Source of the DNA: Geobacter metallireducens GS-15
Lineage (GTDB): Bacteria; Desulfobacterota; Desulfuromonadia; Geobacterales; Geobacteraceae
Direction of reading: 5' to 3'
Length of the DNA stretch: 32,000 nucleotides
Assembly: GCF_000012925.1 (NCBI RefSeq)
Contig: NC_007517.1
Span: 2,850,001 to 2,882,000, forward strand
Shown: piece by piece, positions 23,755-32,000 of the stretch
Position numbering within the stretch: position 1 is the stretch's first letter
Layout of the letters: each line of letters starts with the position of its first letter
Program-made: the position numbers and the translations under genes
The notes under the pieces: model-generated
The model's database searches: none
The model's input: only the letters and a program-made list of their open reading frames with translations
What the model was told of the DNA's origin: nothing

Positions 23755-24726
23755 CTAGGGCTTCGTCGCGGTAAAGATTGCCCGCAGCGGCGCCGGGTGC
23801 CCTTCCATCGTCTTCCCGCCGTCATCCGGATCAAGGAAATCCGCCAGCGACTCGAAGCGCATCCACTCCGTCGCGCGCTGCTCCTCGCAGGTGGTGCGGG
23901 TGGCGTCGACACAGGCAATCTCCGTGAAGCCGCAGCGCTGCAGCCAAAGGGTCAGCGCCGCAATCGACGGGAGGAACCAGACATTGCGCATCTTGGCGTA
24001 GCGTCCCGGCGGCATGAAGATCGTCTCCTGCCCCCCCTCGACAATCAGCGTCTCCAGAATCAGCTCCCCTCCCGGGCGCAGGCACCCCTTCAACTCCAGA
24101 AGATGATCCAGGGGAGAACGCCGATGGTAGAGGACCCCCATGGAGAAGACACTGTCGAAGCAGGCCGGATTCGGCGGGACATCCTCAATGCCGATGGGGA
24201 TGACATGATGCCGGGGATCCCGCAGGTAGCGCTGCATCACCTGGAACTGCATCACCGAAACCAGAAAGGGCTCGATGCCGAGGACGAAGTCGGCGCCGGC
24301 GCCGCGCATACGCCAGCCATGATAGCCGTTGCCGCAGCCGACATCCAGGACTTTGCGCCCGGCGAGCGGCTGAATGTGCGGCAGCAGGCGCTCCCACTTC
24401 CAGTCGGAGCGCCACTCGGTATCGATCTCGATGCCGAAGACACTGTAGGGGCCCTTGCGCCAGGGGTGAAAGGCCTGCAGCCCGAGGATGAGATCTTCGC
24501 GAGTGACTGAGCAGAGATCGGCGCCGGAACCGATGGTGACAGTGTCCTGCAGTGCAATCCGGGATGGGTGCAGCTCCGGCAGCGCCTGCAGCGCGCTCAG
24601 CCAGCCCGGCATATCGCCGTACCGTTGGAGGAGCTGGCTCTCGGACAGGGTCACCTGCAACTGCTCGGCCCAGCGCTCCTGCCCCATGGCGGCAAGGTGC
24701 GGAAAGAGAGCGTCGTACCAGCTCAT
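23755..24726 (-). CDS. cmoB: tRNA U34 carboxymethyltransferase CmoB
   Basis: It shows strong similarity to E. coli CmoB: [30 protein letters not shown]..., [17 protein letters not shown], and [14 protein letters not shown]...[16 protein letters not shown] 24726 overlaps the cmoA stop (ATGA). The track start 24759 is less likely. Confidence 0.95.
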
Positions 24727-25529
24727 TTCATCGCCACCAGAGAGGCAAAGTTGAAACACTGGAACCAGAGCTCGGAGAACGAAAAGCCCGCCGCCTGCAG
24801 GCGCTCATGATGGCAGGCAAGGGTCTCGGGGATCAGCACCTTTTCCAGCGCCGACCGTTTCTGGCTGATTTCCAGATCGCTGTAGCCGTTGGCCCGTTTG
24901 AAATCGTGATGCAGCTCTTCATGGAACTGCTGCCGCCCCGGCTCGCCGAAAGCGATCTTCTCGGAGAGGATGAGCACGCCGCCAGGCCTGAGCCCGGCAT
25001 GGATCCGCTCAAGCAGCGCCAGGCGCTCTGCCGGGGGGATGAACTGCAGGGTGAAGTTGAGGACCACGACCGAGGCGTTCTCAATGGCGACCTCCTGCAG
25101 ATCGGCACAGATCATGGTCACCGGCACCGTCGGTGCCGTATCGAGGGCCAGCAGCTCACGGCCCCGCGCGATCATCGCCGGGGAGTTATCCACCGCAATA
25201 ATGTCACAGTCCGGCTGAGTGATCCGCTGGCGCATGGCAAGGCTGACCGCCCCCAGGGAACAGCCGAGATCATAGCAGTGACTCCCGGCCTGGGCATATT
25301 TCGCGGCAACGATGCCGATATTGGAGATTATCATGCCGTAGCCGGGGACCGAGCGCTGTATCATGTCGGGAAAGACCGCGACAACCCGTTCATCGAATTG
25401 AAAATCGATCATTTTCTGAAGGGGTGCCGCATAGATGGCATCAGTCTTGTGGGTCACGGTCTCCTGGTCCTTTTCAATCTGGTTATTCGTAAATAAGGTG
25501 AAGATATCGGGTTTGCTGCCGGACATCAA
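24723..25529 (-). CDS. cmoA: Carboxy-S-adenosyl-L-methionine synthase CmoA
   Basis: It is near-collinear with E. coli CmoA: [76 protein letters not shown], and [16 protein letters not shown]. Confidence 0.95.
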
Positions 25530-25617
25530 CCCTTGTTAGCTGACACAGCACATACCGGCCGGAGCAGGGCGCAGCAAGCTGTACGATGGTTGAGCTGCAT
25601 TCTTCTCGACTTTCCAT

Positions 25618-25646
25618 TTGACACAATGTAGCCAGTGGGATACAGT
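25618..25646 (+). promoter_or_regulatory. Candidate sigma-70 promoter of the toxin-antitoxin operon
   Basis: TTGACA (25618-25623), a 17-nt spacer, TACAGT (25641-25646). The -10 ends only 6 nt before ATG 25653, which would imply a leaderless or near-leaderless transcript. Confidence 0.45.
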
Positions 25647-25652
25647 TTGTTT

Positions 25653-25943
25653 ATGATCGAAATCCGCAAAACCGAACATTTTGCCAACTGGCTCGATAAC
25701 TTACGTGATATTCAAGCGAAGGCTCGTGTCCTTGTAAGGATTGAGCGTCTTGCTTCTGGAAACGCAGGCGACGTTAAGCCTGTGGGTGAAGGTGTTTCGG
25801 AAATGCGGATCAACTACGGTCCCGGTTATCGAGTTTATTTTATCCAACGTGGCAGCGAATTGATCATCCTTTTGGCTGGTGGCGACAAGAGCAGCCAGTC
25901 TCGGGATATCAAGGCAGCTGTCCGGCTTGCTCAGAACCTATAG
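25653..25943 (+). CDS. Type II toxin, RelE/HigB-superfamily addiction-module killer protein
   Basis: MIEIRKTEHFANWLDNLRD..ARVLVRIERLASGNAGDVKPVGEGVSEMRINYGPGYRVYF...LLAGGDKSSQSRDIKAA matches the conserved pattern of the addiction-module killer family. An antidote gene lies 9 nt downstream. Confidence 0.85.
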   Translation: MIEIRKTEHFANWLDNLRDIQAKARVLVRIERLASGNAGDVKPVGEGVSEMRINYGPGYRVYFIQRGSELIILLAGGDKSSQSRDIKAAVRLAQNL

Positions 25944-25952
25944 GAGTTTAAA

Positions 25953-26249
25953 ATGACCAAAACAGCTACCAGTCGTTATGATGTTGCAGAACATCTCCGT
26001 ACTCCTGAGGAAATGGCGGCCTATTTAGAAGCCTCCTTTGAAGAGGCCAATGGCGATGCCGCTTTCATTGCAAAGGCTCTTGGCGACATAGCACGCGCTA
26101 AAGGTATGTCTCAAGTGGCGCGCGATGCTGGCCTTTCTCGCGAAAGTCTTTATAAGGCACTTTCAGGTGAGCGTGTTCCTGGTTTTGATACTATTTTAAA
26201 AATCGTTTCAGCACTGGGACTCAAACTTCACGCAGAGGCCGCTCACTAG
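25953..26249 (+). CDS. Type II antitoxin, HigA-family addiction-module antidote protein (HTH)
   Basis: YDVAEHLRTPEEMAAYLEASFEE.GDAAFIAKALGDIARAKGMSQVARDAGLSRESLYKALSGE..PGFDTILKIVSALGLKL matches the antidote family partnered with the upstream killer. Confidence 0.85.
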   Translation: MTKTATSRYDVAEHLRTPEEMAAYLEASFEEANGDAAFIAKALGDIARAKGMSQVARDAGLSRESLYKALSGERVPGFDTILKIVSALGLKLHAEAAH

Positions 26250-26522
26250 TTTTTTGTTTTTTGTAGTAGAGCGAAGAGTCTTTTGTGATCAGGTCTCAAC
26301 TTCTGGCACACCTCGGGAGACCAAAATGAGACGTAGTTGGCCTGTTGACTTCTTCCTCTAAGGCTCTCGTTGCTCAACAAATCAACTACGTCCCCTTACG
26401 TCTTATTCTTGATCTTTGTGGAACACCTGCTGGCGACCGTTACCACGGTTGATAAGGTGGTATATCTCTCCGCCAGCATGTCCTTGTGCGATTCTTGGCA
26501 TCACACTACCTCAAAAAGTAGC

Positions 26523-26570
26523 CTGTCCCCTTTTTCACTCTTTTTTCACTTCTGTCCCCTTTTTCACTTC
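26523..26570. repeat. Direct repeats: 17-bp CTGTCCCCTTTTTCACT twice (26523-26539, 26552-26568) with a partial TTTTTCACT copy between them
   Basis: Read directly from the sequence. The period is 29 bp. The repeats are in non-coding DNA between the antitoxin gene and the 3' end of the 535-aa ORF. Confidence 0.8.
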
Positions 26571-26659
26571 TAAAGCGGGAAGTCTGTTGTCCAGGCCGGA
26601 AGTGGTTTCTCATGATCTTTTCGCGGGCAACGGGGCTGAGGGTGGGCAGCGAAGGCTGC

Positions 26660-28267
26660 TCAAACCGCTGGTTGGCCGTCCATATCCTCAAGCCACGCAC
26701 GATTCCATGCAATTCTGTAACGTCCTCGTTTTTCAATCGTGGACCCGAATATATCAGGTGCTTGAATACGTATAATTCTCTGTACTTGCACAGTACACAC
26801 TAGATCCTTTCCAAGCCCGCCGAATTGCCGTCGTCGATGGTCTCCGCAATATACAGAAATACGTGCATAGCCTAATGGCAAATAACGTAAGAGGTCCAAC
26901 CGAGATGTGTGTTGCCGTGCATGCGACAGGGACTTGCTTATTATGCGGCGTAAAACTTTTCTTATATCACTAATTAAATCGTCGGATTGATCTTGAATAA
27001 GGACAGTTCCAGAGAGAACCAGTCCCCAAGAATTTCGGTGTATCTTCGCGTCTCGCACTTTGAGAGAGGGAAGCCGCATGCTTTTTCTGAAATCTGCTGC
27101 AATTATCGGCATGTTTACTCGAAAATACGAATACATGGTTCCCATACGGTGTATAAAGCGGGGCAGTTTTAGACGAGGAACAAAGAAAATCAAATTTTCT
27201 ATTACAACACCTTGGTAATCCTCAAGCCGGGGGCATCCAGACTGTCGAAGTAGTCTTAGCTTTTCGCCGTCAAAAACGGTAAAACCTGGCCATGCATTTG
27301 GGGAACGAATAGAGAAAAAATATCGACTATATCCTGGGGCAAAAAGCTCAGCAAGGTAGCCCGATTGGAAAACAGATACCTGTACCTTAAAAAAGTCGTA
27401 CGTCCTCGCCCGGACATGCACAATAAGCTGATTAAGATCTGTGTACTCTGAGGGTGTGCACCCGATGATTTCCCACCAAGGTGTTTTTGTTTCTTCTTTA
27501 AGTTCGTCGATGAGAAGCTGGTTTGGAATTTCATACCCATGATGCTGGTTGGCAATTACAAACACTGAAAATGCCAAAACAATTGCATTGCAGGTATCGA
27601 TTATGTTGTCACATACATTTACCATTGTCCTGTCTGACAACACATCCTCGTTTCTCTGCTTGTCTTTATAGGAAATTGAGTTGTCAAAAAATTTGATGCC
27701 TCCGTGCGCTATGCCATTCCTGACCACGTGGCGATAATGCACTGTTAATTCATTTAAATCAGACGTCTTAAGTTCCTCAACTATATTAAATACATCCAGT
27801 TTTTCTGTGCCCTTCCCGCGTTTTAGACGCGAAAAATACGCAGGTATGCGAAGCATTGGACTATATACAGCTTCTATGAGCCTCAGATATGTCGGATGTA
27901 TATTTTGGTCAATAAATCTTGTCAATTCATAATTATCACTCGTATCAAGTTGATCATGCCAATCGAATTGGTTTATTTCTGTAAGATGGAGAAAGGCATG
28001 ATTTAACTCAACCATAAAATCTCTAAAGTACTCTTGAAGCTTGTCGCGTTGATCAAGATCGATACTTTGCAGCCATTTGAGGTATTTAGTGTAACTTGAT
28101 CTACAATAAAATCGCTGAGGTGTACCATTAGTATACTTATGGAGGGAGAGAAAATGCTTGTGGGGGCAGCCTTCGAGGTCCGCAAAGATATTTCTGAGTT
28201 CAGAACGTCTACGGTCATGAACCTGTCGAAACAAAGAGTTCTGAAGTATGTTCTGAAGTAATTCCAT
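26660..28267 (-). CDS. AT-rich orphan protein, 535 aa, with an HEPN-like R-N-G-I-A-H motif (candidate RNase / abortive-infection effector)
   Basis: A long uninterrupted ORF in DNA that is about 30-43% GC by eye, where chance ORFs of this length are very unlikely. AAGGA lies 4 nt before the ATG. Residues 183-188, RNGIAH (nt 27704-27721), fit the HEPN Rx4-6H signature. I recognise no family for the C-terminal 300 aa or so. Confidence 0.8.
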   Translation of the reverse strand: MELLQNILQNSLFRQVHDRRRSELRNIFADLEGCPHKHFLSLHKYTNGTPQRFYCRSSYTKYLKWLQSIDLDQRDKLQEYFRDFMVELNHAFLHLTEINQFDWHDQLDTSDNYELTRFIDQNIHPTYLRLIEAVYSPMLRIPAYFSRLKRGKGTEKLDVFNIVEELKTSDLNELTVHYRHVVRNGIAHGGIKFFDNSISYKDKQRNEDVLSDRTMVNVCDNIIDTCNAIVLAFSVFVIANQHHGYEIPNQLLIDELKEETKTPWWEIIGCTPSEYTDLNQLIVHVRARTYDFFKVQVSVFQSGYLAELFAPGYSRYFFSIRSPNAWPGFTVFDGEKLRLLRQSGCPRLEDYQGVVIENLIFFVPRLKLPRFIHRMGTMYSYFRVNMPIIAADFRKSMRLPSLKVRDAKIHRNSWGLVLSGTVLIQDQSDDLISDIRKVLRRIISKSLSHARQHTSRLDLLRYLPLGYARISVYCGDHRRRQFGGLGKDLVCTVQVQRIIRIQAPDIFGSTIEKRGRYRIAWNRAWLEDMDGQPAV

Positions 28268-29044
28268 TTCATCCTTCGGATAACGGGGTCGGCGTTGACC
28301 CGCCCGTCTTTAGCAGGCCGTTGAAAAACTCCTCTGCTCCAAGGGCACTTTCCTTCAAGGAGAGCATTTCCGGCTGATTGTTGTATTGATTTCGTCTTAT
28401 TCGTTCTTTGAAACCTTGCTTTTTCGCCTTAATTTTGCCTTTTCAGGCGGATTCTGCGGCCCAGGGCCGCACTACTTCCCTGTTTATGCCGTTTTCATCC
28501 CGAGATTGCGGAGCCGGACCAGATTGTATGCCGCGATGGTCAAGGTGAAGTACCAGTCGACCTTCGCTACTCCCCGGTGCCGGGTCTTGCGGAGATTGCC
28601 GACAGTCTTGAGCCAACCGAAGGCTTCTTCAATCCGTTTGCGAATTCTCAGGCTGGTTTTGTAGCCTTCGTGGCGGGTGGTCCTGCCGTCGATGGCTGAG
28701 CGGCGGTTAGTGGTATTCTGGGCGACGTGAGGGGTTACGTTGAGAGCCCGCAGTTCTTCGACGCATTCTTTGGTGTCGTAGCCCTTGTCGCCCCCTACCG
28801 TGATACGCTTGCCGCCGGCGACGTCGGCGATCATCTCGACTGCGGTATCCCGCTCTGCGGTGCCGGTGGCCTGAGTGATTCTGGCATCGACAATGATCCC
28901 ATGGCGGTTCTCCATGAGGGCGTGCCCGTGGTAGCTGAGCTTTGCCTCCTTGCCCGCGCTTCTCTTGGCAATTGTCAACGGCAATCGAAAATTGACCCAC
29001 TTTACCGGTTGATCGGCAATTGAAAAATGACCCACCTTCCTGGG

Positions 29045-30879
<1,835 letters not shown>

Positions 30880-31713
30880 CTAGGTTATCAGGAAGAGTGG
30901 GTCAATTTTCAATTTCCGAGGTGGGTCATTTTTACATTGCCGCTAACAGCAATCCGCGCATCGGGATCAGTGGTGGAGGCATGGGTGTCGTTTTTGAGTT
31001 TCTCGCCGTGGAAGTCACGCTCCGTGTTCCGACCTACGGGAGGCTGTGGCCCATCCTTGGGCAGGAAGCTCTTGATGGAAGCCCATGCCTCGATGAGGGT
31101 GCCGTCAACACTGAAGTGCTCGTCGGACAACAGCTTTGCCCCTCGGGCTTGCTCAACCACCCTGGCCAGGAGCAACCGTGCCACGTCGGTATCGATCAAC
31201 CGCTCCAGGTTGGTGGAAAACGATGAGTGGTCCCAGACCTTCTCGTCCAAGGCCAGTCCCACAAACCAGCGGAACAGGATGCTGTAGCTGATCTGCTCCA
31301 CCAGCAGACGGTTACTCCTGATGGTGTACAGCGCTTGGAGCAGCAGGGCTTTGAGCAACTGCTCCGGCGGAATCGAGGGCCTGCCGGTGTGGGAATACAT
31401 AGCCTCGAATTGAGGGTTGAGCTCTGCAAGCGACTTGTCGACCATCGTCTTGATCGGACGCAGGGGGTGGTCCTTCGGGACGTACGATTCAAGGGACAGA
31501 TAGAAGAACAGGGCTTCGGTTTTTGTCTCGCTGCCGCGCATAACGTTTCTCCTGTAAATTCGTATTGTTACGCGCCAAAATATAGCACAATTCGCTAACT
31601 TATTGAATCAAAAAGGGTTAGTTTTTCAACAACCTGTTAGGGCGGCGCCTAACGACGTGGTTGGGAACTTTGTCTCAAATGTTCATTTTCAAAGGCTGGT
31701 CTACTTTTGCCCC

Positions 31714-32000
31714 TCATTGAAAGTCTCTTGACAACATTAATGACGCTGCTGAAGGATCTATAACAGCACCGTTTAATTCCTTCGCGATTCTATAGCCTTT
31801 TTCTCTAAATTCTGACAATGATTCGGTAACTTGACGTAAAGAAGAAGTGTCTATTATTAGCCGCAATGCAGTCCCATCAAGTTGCGTTACAACATTCCGC
31901 TTGCTTCGCTCTCTGAGCATTATTCCGCTCGATTTGCTGCATATAAAAAAACTTCCTCCATTTCGACATAATTCGCTGGTCATAAAGAGCCCAAACCCAG
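31714..32000 (-). CDS. AT-rich hypothetical ORF, open at the window edge (89 aa from the first ATG; probably the C-terminus of a longer protein)
   Basis: The frame has no stop between ATG 31983 and position 32000, so the true start may lie outside the window. It has the same strand and the same low GC as the 535-aa ORF. I recognise no family. Confidence 0.4.
   Translation of the reverse strand, partial: GFGLFMTSELCRNGGSFFICSKSSGIMLRERSKRNVVTQLDGTALRLIIDTSSLRQVTESLSEFREKGYRIAKELNGAVIDPSAASLMLSRDFQ

Follow-up and report, generated by a model that had tools for sequence, protein, structure and literature searches.

The single-protein HEPN immunity proteins DARNA/PD-T7-3 and ApeA have been solved only recently, and each senses infection in a different way. 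DARNA/PD-T7-3 is composed of an N-terminal HEPN domain and a C-terminal sensor of single-stranded DNA (ssDNA), assembles as a dodecamer and acts as a tRNase, and its cue is ssDNA bound by SSB (bioRxiv 10.64898/2026.02.22.705581). ApeA features an N-terminal sensor pocket followed by a C-terminal HEPN domain, forms a decamer and is likewise a tRNase, with deoxydinucleotides as the sensed cue (bioRxiv 10.64898/2026.01.26.701840). ApeA occurs in restriction-modification (R-M) contexts according to Anantharaman et al. (PMC3710099). The gene described here is located on the minus strand at positions 26660..28267 of a 32,000-nucleotide (nt) stretch of the Geobacter metallireducens GS-15 genome (assembly GCF_000012925.1, contig NC_007517.1, positions 2,850,001 to 2,882,000), which was analysed at its full length and is referred to as the window. 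The gene encodes a protein of 535 amino acids (aa) with an N-terminal region that is probably a HEPN-superfamily domain. The kind of protein this would be, a single-gene HEPN immunity protein, is a known one; what is new is the unannotated family to which it belongs and a C-terminal domain without a recognisable relative.

DARNA resembles the present protein in being a single polypeptide, of 456 aa, with an N-terminal HEPN domain bearing an Rx4H motif and a larger non-catalytic C-terminal sensor, and it is also a stand-alone abortive-infection gene. The HEPN domain of DARNA is closest to Csm6 6TUG, which is the HEPN structure that Foldseek lists, non-significantly, for the protein from the window. 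The two proteins have no sequence relationship, however, and PADLOC, which includes the PD-T7 systems in its model list, gave no match. DARNA is all-alpha with a Pds5-like C-terminal domain, whereas the C-terminal half of the present protein is alpha/beta, and the latter also has approximately 85 extra residues before the HEPN core and a beta-hairpin after the motif. ApeA is a single protein of ~550-600 aa that joins a HEPN ribonuclease (RNase) to a ligand-pocket domain without detectable homology, and it is an abortive tRNA anticodon nuclease. It differs in its reversed domain order, with HEPN at the C-terminus. One of 46 diverse family members touches the Apea profile (E=0.6), and PADLOC gave no ApeA match at E up to 10.

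The 535-residue protein and its family

26660..28267, minus strand: complete gene, an open reading frame (ORF) of 535 codons plus stop, with the stop codon at 26660-26662

The ORF list bears out this reading frame, which had been proposed in an initial annotation of the window, and full-length homologues with 25-86% identity support it as a complete gene. The gene calls deposited for this exact gene (P0002, L010, L011) use an internal Met as start codon, which yields a product of 451 aa. The 84 N-terminal residues that these calls lack are conserved family-wide in the family alignment, so the 535-aa start is correct and the deposited gene models are truncated. At the opposite end, the initial annotation had suggested that the native C-terminus might have been replaced. 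This is contradicted by the conserved A520-W521-N522..W525 block and by DNA homology with the Geomonas and Trichlorobacter genes that extends past the stop codon as far as window position 26628; the C-terminus is native. The last 75 nt of the gene are mildly GC-richer only (0.49 vs 0.42), and the coding sequence is intact in the window copy. The gene does deviate in composition, as first noticed, with a GC content of 0.421 and a third-codon-position GC (GC3) of 0.386 compared to 0.613 for window positions 1-25500 (host ~0.61). The same tendency is observed across the family, as the gene has a lower GC content than its flanks in 57 of 63 genomes (mean GC difference -0.08, Wilcoxon p ~1e-9).

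The protein is not the orphan that it was initially taken to be. A search of 5.8 billion proteins matched 245 clusters (90% identity), and 403 of 1.84 billion representatives clustered at 50% identity were matched in an exhaustive HMMER scan. A family gene was located at 78 loci in 185,579 species genomes (one genome per species), a count that is a lower bound as the scan used two peptide patterns. Family members are 510-560 aa in length apart from fragments, and align end to end down to ~25% identity. Every member is named "hypothetical protein" and none has a Pfam domain; Pfam, NCBIfam (June 2026) and PADLOC 2.0 contain no model for the family, which is absent from all annotation libraries tested, and no description of it was found in the literature searched.

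The family is comparable in size and logic to ApeA and DARNA and is patchily distributed, with members in more than 20 phyla of bacteria and in several archaea. The bacterial hosts include Desulfobacterota, Planctomycetota, Chloroflexota, Bacteroidota, Alphaproteobacteria, Campylobacterales, Gemmatimonadota, Acidobacteriota, Verrucomicrobiota, Nitrospirota, a candidate phyla radiation (CPR) lineage and others, and the archaeal hosts are the methanogenic Methanococcoides, Methanosphaerula and Methanofastidiosum. The nearest relatives, with 81-86% identity, are found in Geomonas and Trichlorobacter. A phage origin of the family was ruled out by the presence of only one relative among 2.9 million viral contigs. 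This relative (L091:374-1972, IMG/VR UViG_3300009517_000009) exhibits 33% identity. It is separated from the end of the contig by 374 nt and may belong to host DNA beside a prophage and not to a phage.

The N-terminal region as a putative HEPN domain

27482..28267, minus strand: N-terminal helical region, residues 1-262 (AlphaFold2; contains 11 of the family's 14 polar positions with >=90% conservation)
27551..28015, minus strand: proposed HEPN-like core, residues ~85-239 (DSSP compared with PMC3710099, Pfam HEPN matches, hhalign 64.6%)
27704..27721, minus strand: candidate catalytic Rx4H motif R183-N184-G-I-A-H188 (R, N and H invariant in 46 diverse members)
27038..27055, minus strand: second Rx4H string, R405-D-A-K-I-H410 (predicted beta-strand; ~80% conserved in the deep set)
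26663..27481, minus strand: C-terminal alpha/beta region, residues 263-535, without detectable relatives (conserved polar residues only Q280, R478 and R480)

Residues 183-188 read RNGIAH and are followed by GG, and the sequence confirms this element where it was first annotated (nt 27704-27721). Among 33 members with at least 44% identity, the invariant positions are R183, N184, I186, H188, G189, G190 and the C-terminal A520-W521-N522..W525 block. Among 46 diverse members, extending down to 25% identity, P50, H104, E132, R183, N184, H188, D224 and R478 are invariant. The Rx4-6H signature emphasised in the initial annotation is, as a generic string, present no more often than chance, with ~5 expected from composition and 3 present. 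The absolute conservation of R, N and H is what stands, since R183-x4-H188 is the sole one of the three strings in which R and H, together with N184, are invariant in the 46 members. The R405-D-A-K-I-H410 string is followed by R-N-S-W-G and is invariant among closer homologues; it does not look HEPN-like because it is predicted to form a beta-strand.

Structural prediction was performed using AlphaFold2 (AF2) with the family alignment, and secondary structure was assigned by DSSP. The full-length model has a predicted local distance difference test (pLDDT) score of 87.4 and a predicted template modelling (pTM) score of 0.87, and residues 1-262 modelled alone reach 91.8 and 0.90 respectively. 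Helices are predicted at residues 56-83, 85-98, 112-150, 159-167, 172-175 and 180-187, followed by a three-stranded beta-meander at 191-211 and a long helix at 212-239. The N-terminal ~230 residues had been described as helical, which agrees with the model up to residue ~187, where the short meander precedes the final helix to 239. In the proposed core, helix-1 (85-98) is followed by helix-2 (112-150), which carries E132, an insert (151-179), helix-3 (180-187), which ends in the motif, the beta-hairpin/meander (191-211) and helix-4 (212-239), which carries D220, D224 and N227.

This arrangement was compared with the description of the HEPN superfamily by Anantharaman et al. (PMC3710099). The HEPN signature is Rx4-6H with a polar residue after the R, which is usually N, D or H (PMC3710099), and the family features an R183-N184-x3-H188 motif that is invariant in the 46 members. 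In both AF2 models the motif is at the end of helix 180-187, H188 directly follows this helix as the first residue outside it and the following long helix spans 212-239, which fits PMC3710099; the insert between helices 2 and 3 and the hairpin after the motif in these models also agree with the published layout. A conserved acidic residue is located in helix-2 of many HEPN families (PMC3710099), and E132 is invariant within helix 112-150, though it is non-canonical in being outside an Ex3[KR] context.

Residues 90-245 of the 46 diverse members (alignment A6) were each scanned against 24,736 Pfam models at E up to 10. All of the Pfam families matched by more than one member are HEPN families: pEK499_p136 (five members), AbiU2 (two members, best E 2.7e-4) and MAE_28990 (two members). 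RiboL-PSP-HEPN and Apea-HEPN were each matched by one member. The C-terminal half, put through the same procedure as an internal control, gave 11 unrelated singletons. The family consensus matches AbiU2 (E=0.003) and RiboL-PSP (E=0.009), and one member matches MAE_28990 (E=0.02). The AbiU2, RiboL-PSP and MAE_28990 alignments begin at R183/N184 and map to the C-terminal, motif-bearing end of the HEPN profiles.

The best profile-profile match was obtained with pEK499_p136 (PF18736, "HEPN family nuclease"). A true PF18736 member from plasmid pEK499 (NC_013122) was used as reference, and 42 members of its family were aligned (alignment A7). Comparison of A6 with A7 by hhalign gave a probability of 64.6% and E=6e-5, with the aligned consensus strings reading "lRnSVAHF.I.v...lID.I.F.d" vs "tiRNgIAHG.V.y....I.Y.Dk". 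Other segments of the protein gave 0.1-0.2%, 30 column shuffles gave at most 2.2% (E >=0.021), and the reversed alignment gave 0.9%. Both families contain xxRN[GS][IV]AH followed directly by a beta-hairpin with a second strand that ends in an acidic residue (I-x-[FY]-x-D), and R-M and further defence genes accompany both of them (PMC3710099, Table 1). The p136 proteins differ in being single-domain proteins of ~160 aa, and their N-terminal conserved motifs (E8, F11, NCLLGL) have no counterpart here. The Pfam scores are far below the gathering cut-off: the best E for PF18736 among the 46 members is 0.03, under the gathering threshold of 26.6 bits, and the true pEK499 member scores 168 bits. On pEK499 itself (L090:41727-43013), the gene for the p136 HEPN nuclease is followed 12 nt downstream by one for a 257-aa hypothetical protein. 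Directly upstream of p136 are the genes for two VapBC pairs and for a hypothetical protein of 1264 aa, and an AAA ATPase/UvrD-helicase pair is located ~6 kb upstream.

The RNxxxH motif is also shared with AbiU2, RiboL-PSP and MAE_28990 and with the lactococcal AbiD/F, AbiJ and AbiV proteins, and the Pfam alignments, which are sub-threshold, extend from the motif to the domain end. These are stand-alone abortive-infection genes that are often found near R-M systems. They exhibit no threshold-passing similarity to the family, however, are shorter or have other partner domains, and none has the C-terminal alpha/beta domain of the family. Csm6/Csx1 and Cas13 feature the R-N-x-x-x-H catalytic motif as well, with activity gated by a separate sensor (CARF) or a guide RNA, and Csx1 has a beta-hairpin after the motif. 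In contrast to these, the family has no CRISPR association in 63 loci and no CARF domain, and the Foldseek similarity to Csm6 is non-significant.

Several results weigh against a HEPN assignment. The full-length protein matched nothing in Pfam, NCBIfam, PADLOC or the PDB sequences at E up to 10, and the NCBIfam scans of individual members gave no HEPN match; a profile of the full family also found no match in the PDB sequences. Every Pfam HEPN match is below its gathering threshold (e.g. 17.5 vs 26.8 bits), and the hhalign match covers 34 columns only, consisting of the motif and the following hairpin. Foldseek returned nothing significant for the full model against PDB and BFVD or for the N-terminal model against PDB, with best E-values of 0.016, 0.0047 and 0.17 respectively and TM-scores of at most 0.24. 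The sole HEPN structure listed, the Csm6 chain 6tug_B, ranks seventh in the N-terminal search (E=1.8, prob 0.09), which is at noise level. Helix-3 is short, with eight residues. Finally, H104 and D224 are invariant and D220 and N227 are conserved outside the canonical HEPN site, which could mean a different chemistry. The structure search suggested with the initial annotation thus yielded neither a HEPN-like nor any other significant Foldseek match for either half of the protein.

These points bear on a rival explanation, in which the N-terminal domain is another helical enzyme fold. H104, E132, H188 and D224, with D220 and N227, would form for example a metal nuclease or phosphohydrolase site, the RNxxxH motif would be convergent, and a role of the protein as an effector in defence or conflict would still be possible. 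An invariant His/Glu/His/Asp set is commonly found at metal sites and does not figure in the HEPN definition, no PDB HEPN structure was matched, and the HEPN sequence signals are all sub-threshold and centred on the motif. However, the invariance of each of R, N and H is what would be expected of three catalytic residues. Five independent HEPN profiles were matched, and no metal-dependent nuclease, HD, HNH or PD-(D/E)xK family was matched at E up to 10. The hhalign match reaches past the motif into the hairpin, the order of secondary structure elements agrees with HEPN, and Foldseek gave no HD, HNH or restriction-endonuclease fold. A non-HEPN enzyme is therefore regarded as unlikely. Two narrower readings of this type were rejected: W103-H104-D105 as part of an HD domain was ruled out by the lack of any HD family or fold match, and the hairpin and following helix as an HNH/ββα-metal or PD-(D/E)xK site by the lack of a conserved His in the hairpin and of a family or fold match.

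The element h-V-R-N-x-x-x-H-G (window 27695-27725, residues ~181-190) mimics the N-box of the CheA P4 domain, which reads hVRNxxDHG in the kinases, and is a possible trap for motif-based annotation. If it were an N-box, the protein would be a degenerate GHKL/Bergerat ATPase of the type found in CheA and histidine kinases, with an ATP-binding signalling or ATPase function. CheA is the sole recurrent NCBIfam match (CheA_Halo in three members, best E=0.058; PRK10547 in one), a weak CheA match was found in the PDB sequences (8c5v, E=1.8), and the CheA matches span the motif and the 30 residues before it. On the other hand, the G1 (DxGxG) and G2 (GxxGxG) boxes are each present in only 4 of the 46 members at unconserved positions, no HATPase_c family was matched in Pfam at E up to 10, and Foldseek gave no Bergerat-fold match even though this fold is abundant in PDB. 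The invariant R and H are also not general GHKL features. The N-box reading was ruled out on the absent G1 and G2 boxes and the lack of a Bergerat-fold or HATPase_c match, and is considered hardly credible.

The HEPN assignment of the N-terminal region is the likely one, and the evidence for homology is moderate. The initial annotation is strengthened here by the five sub-threshold Pfam HEPN families, the hhalign match and the order of the helices, but not by the Foldseek searches, which gave no significant match.

C-terminal region and proposed mode of action

The C-terminal ~300 aa had been described as matching nothing recognisable, and this description holds: the C-terminal half has no recurrent Pfam family, no match in the PDB sequences and no significant Foldseek match. 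Weak Foldseek matches of the full-length model to a family II pyrophosphatase/DHH protein, a CamS pheromone precursor and a type VI secretion system (T6SS) immunity protein were disregarded, as their TM-scores are at most 0.13 and their root-mean-square deviations exceed 13 A except in one 114-column match. An internal duplication of the C-terminal half, in which a ββαββ unit would occur twice, was ruled out by hhalign (0.2%).

The two halves differ in the number of polar residues conserved at >=90%. There are 11 within residues 1-260 (N99, H104, E132, R183, N184, H188, D202, D220, D224, N227 and E255) and three within residues 261-535 (Q280, R478 and R480), which indicates that the N-terminal half is the catalytic one and the C-terminal half non-catalytic. 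Because it has few conserved polar residues and resembles nothing known, the C-terminal region of ~270-290 residues is suggested to be a sensor/regulatory or oligomerisation domain. The conserved arginine-rich segment D-x-R478-x-R480-x-L...G-L suggests nucleic-acid or nucleotide binding.

The analysis demonstrates a family with invariant residues and a division into two domains, which lacks a conserved partner and is located among mobile and defence genes. Beyond this, HEPN homology is inferred and, by analogy with DARNA/PD-T7-3 and ApeA, so are RNase activity, dimerisation, a trigger and a defence phenotype. The N-terminal helical domain would be a divergent HEPN-type, metal-independent RNase, and the C-terminal 270-290 residues would be non-catalytic and would sense a signal, mediate oligomerisation or restrain the RNase. 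Dimerisation through the HEPN domain would create a composite R/N/H active site. The protein would be inactive in uninfected cells until a phage-derived cue is recognised by the non-catalytic domain and the RNase is released. Cleavage of cellular RNA, most likely tRNA, would then stop translation and abort the infection. That the gene encodes such a stand-alone, horizontally mobile HEPN-type RNase with a non-catalytic domain, acting in abortive-infection defence, has roughly even prospects of being correct. A further-reaching version has a small chance of being right; in it, the family would be a single-gene immune sensor-effector of bacteria and archaea in which the C-terminal region is a novel fold for a new infection signal and the HEPN-like site is elaborated by H104, D220, D224 and N227, with a differing chemistry or substrate.

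The family is a good candidate, from its sequences, for a new single-gene anti-phage system, in which a candidate RNase is joined to a domain that is modelled with confidence and has no known counterpart. Should the family prove protective against phage, it would extend the repertoire by a new sensor domain and, probably, a new trigger, and would provide a model for several hundred "hypothetical proteins" in annotation pipelines. It is a solid, testable candidate more than a surprise, as HEPN domains recur throughout defence.

Genomic neighbourhoods of the homologues and of the window copy

ORFs were called within 7 kb on either side of the gene in 63 loci, and the resulting 862 ORFs were clustered all-against-all. 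No non-self neighbour cluster is present in more than five of the 63 loci, and a same-strand upstream neighbour within 30 nt is found in only 14 of them. As no neighbour cluster is conserved, the gene is a single-gene unit without a conserved partner. This does not agree with the initial annotation, which had proposed a partner and a two-gene unit with the AT-rich ORF upstream, an ORF that matches nothing near the homologues. MNT/NTP_transf_2 proteins are not recurrent among the neighbours, and there is no conserved adjacent antitoxin in the 63 loci.

Pfam annotation was carried out for 11 loci, consisting of the window (through an identical sibling contig, L010) and ten homologue loci, which carry the following:

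L001: TIR protein in an integrase/relaxase island at serS
L004: MazEF near a serine recombinase, group II intron reverse transcriptases and IS91-family transposases
L005: complete type I R-M operon (HsdR) that ends 100 bp upstream, same strand
L007: BrnT and its antitoxin
L008: MmeI-type IIG enzyme that ends 4 bp upstream, same strand
L009: MazEF beside an 1851-aa DEAD/MZB helicase
L010 (window): HigB/Gp49-like toxin-antitoxin (TA) pair
L092: AbiV-HEPN protein and several integrases
L093: NotI and its methylase
L094: RiboL-PSP-HEPN-like protein and IS66
L095: Gabija (GajA/GajB) and Shedu, with a TrwC relaxase/type IV secretion system (T4SS) coupling protein

Defence, TA or mobile-element genes are located within 8 kb in all 11 annotated loci, and recognised defence systems in seven of them. 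The defence-island-like context described for the window is therefore borne out by R-M, Gabija, Shedu, TIR, TA and mobile-element genes near the homologues and by the AT-shift of the gene. A point that weighs against the defence assignment is that this enrichment is qualitative, without a matched genomic background, and that ordinary metabolic genes are numerous among the neighbours. A bulk scan also covered the two ORFs closest to the gene on either side (241 proteins). These neighbours are highly heterogeneous, with a recurring minority of N6_Mtase/Eco57I/MmeI, ResIII, AAA_21, integrase and IS21/IS5 transposase families. PADLOC matches among them are type IIG R-M, MADS components, DrmD, HerA, GajB, SoFic, a type IV restriction enzyme and DRT.

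In L095 (3942-7736 and 9670-14001), the family member lies between the Gabija and Shedu cluster and the TrwC relaxase with its T4SS coupling protein, a position within a defence hotspot of a conjugative element. Another HEPN protein is encoded 0.2-2 kb downstream of the family gene in two metagenomic loci that are unrelated to each other (L092:9849-10490, AbiV-type; L094:11540-12307, weak RiboL-PSP-type). The second HEPN gene may be a coincidence within defence islands or may reflect functional clustering.

The same neighbourhoods allow for a HEPN-type toxin that serves mobile elements through addiction, post-segregational killing or competition, or that provides a "second line" to R-M systems, and that is not an autonomous anti-phage system. 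Family genes are carried by integrative or conjugative elements and adjoin integrases, relaxases and IS elements, in two loci they directly follow the gene for HsdR (100 bp) or an MmeI-type enzyme (4 bp) on the same strand, and many HEPN families are embedded in R-M operons (PMC3710099). However, the lack of a conserved antitoxin or immunity neighbour in the 63 loci makes a classical TA or addiction module unlikely, R-M genes are not adjacent in most loci, and a same-strand neighbour lies close upstream in only the 14 loci mentioned above. This explanation is accordingly considered improbable. An ordinary housekeeping or regulatory protein that is found in variable regions by chance is very improbable. 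Many of the neighbours are indeed metabolic or regulatory, and the defence-gene enrichment has no matched background. Against this, the family is found at only 78 loci, with the lower bound noted above, and its scattered occurrence across bacteria and archaea follows no vertical pattern. Its genes are lower in GC than their hosts in 57 of 63 genomes, have no conserved synteny and repeatedly adjoin integrases, IS elements and defence systems.

The features surrounding the gene in the window are as follows:

25635..26249, plus strand: TA pair, composed of a Gp49/HigB-like toxin (25635-25943) and a helix-turn-helix (HTH) antitoxin (dnstrm_HI1420/HTH_3; 25953-26249)
28268..28309, minus strand: native upstream remnant of 42 nt between the ATG and the IS5 insertion (from the junction sequence and inverted repeats)
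28314..31635, no strand assigned: IS5-family element with a TTAG target duplication at 28310-28313 and 31636-31639 (from inverted repeats I1-I4 and the junctions)
~29013-30942: IS21-family element nested in the IS5 element, with istB (29045-29839) and istA (29836-30861) both intact
31714..32000, minus strand: 3' part of an AT-rich ORF (GC ~0.42) that runs off the window and was located ~120 nt upstream of the gene before the IS insertion

The gene adjoins a TA module, as first described. The pair is convergent with the gene, has a GC content of 0.49 and is not conserved beside the homologues; its Pfam assignments were made through the identical genes of L010. The TA pair and the HEPN-like gene form one AT-shifted island that starts right after a cmoA-like gene (24723-25529). 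The gene had been described as flanked by IS elements, which applies to the upstream side only, as the other side is occupied by the TA pair and then cmoA. The AT-rich ORF at 31714-32000 did lie upstream on the same strand before the insertion, as proposed, and a tblastn search against all 95 fetched loci gave nothing better than E=0.34; this ORF is not a conserved partner. No Rfam family was found within 25400-32000, and promoter-like and terminator-like sites are no more frequent than expected from shuffled sequence.

The IS elements are not part of the system and separate the gene from its native upstream region. The IS5 element ends 44 bp upstream of the ATG and leaves 42 nt of native upstream DNA, so the native promoter has probably been displaced and the window copy, whose expression is uncertain, may be poorly expressed. 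The sibling assemblies have an identical IS junction, and the sibling metagenome contigs end inside that IS. The IstB and DUF772 families are also seen in similar neighbours at other loci.

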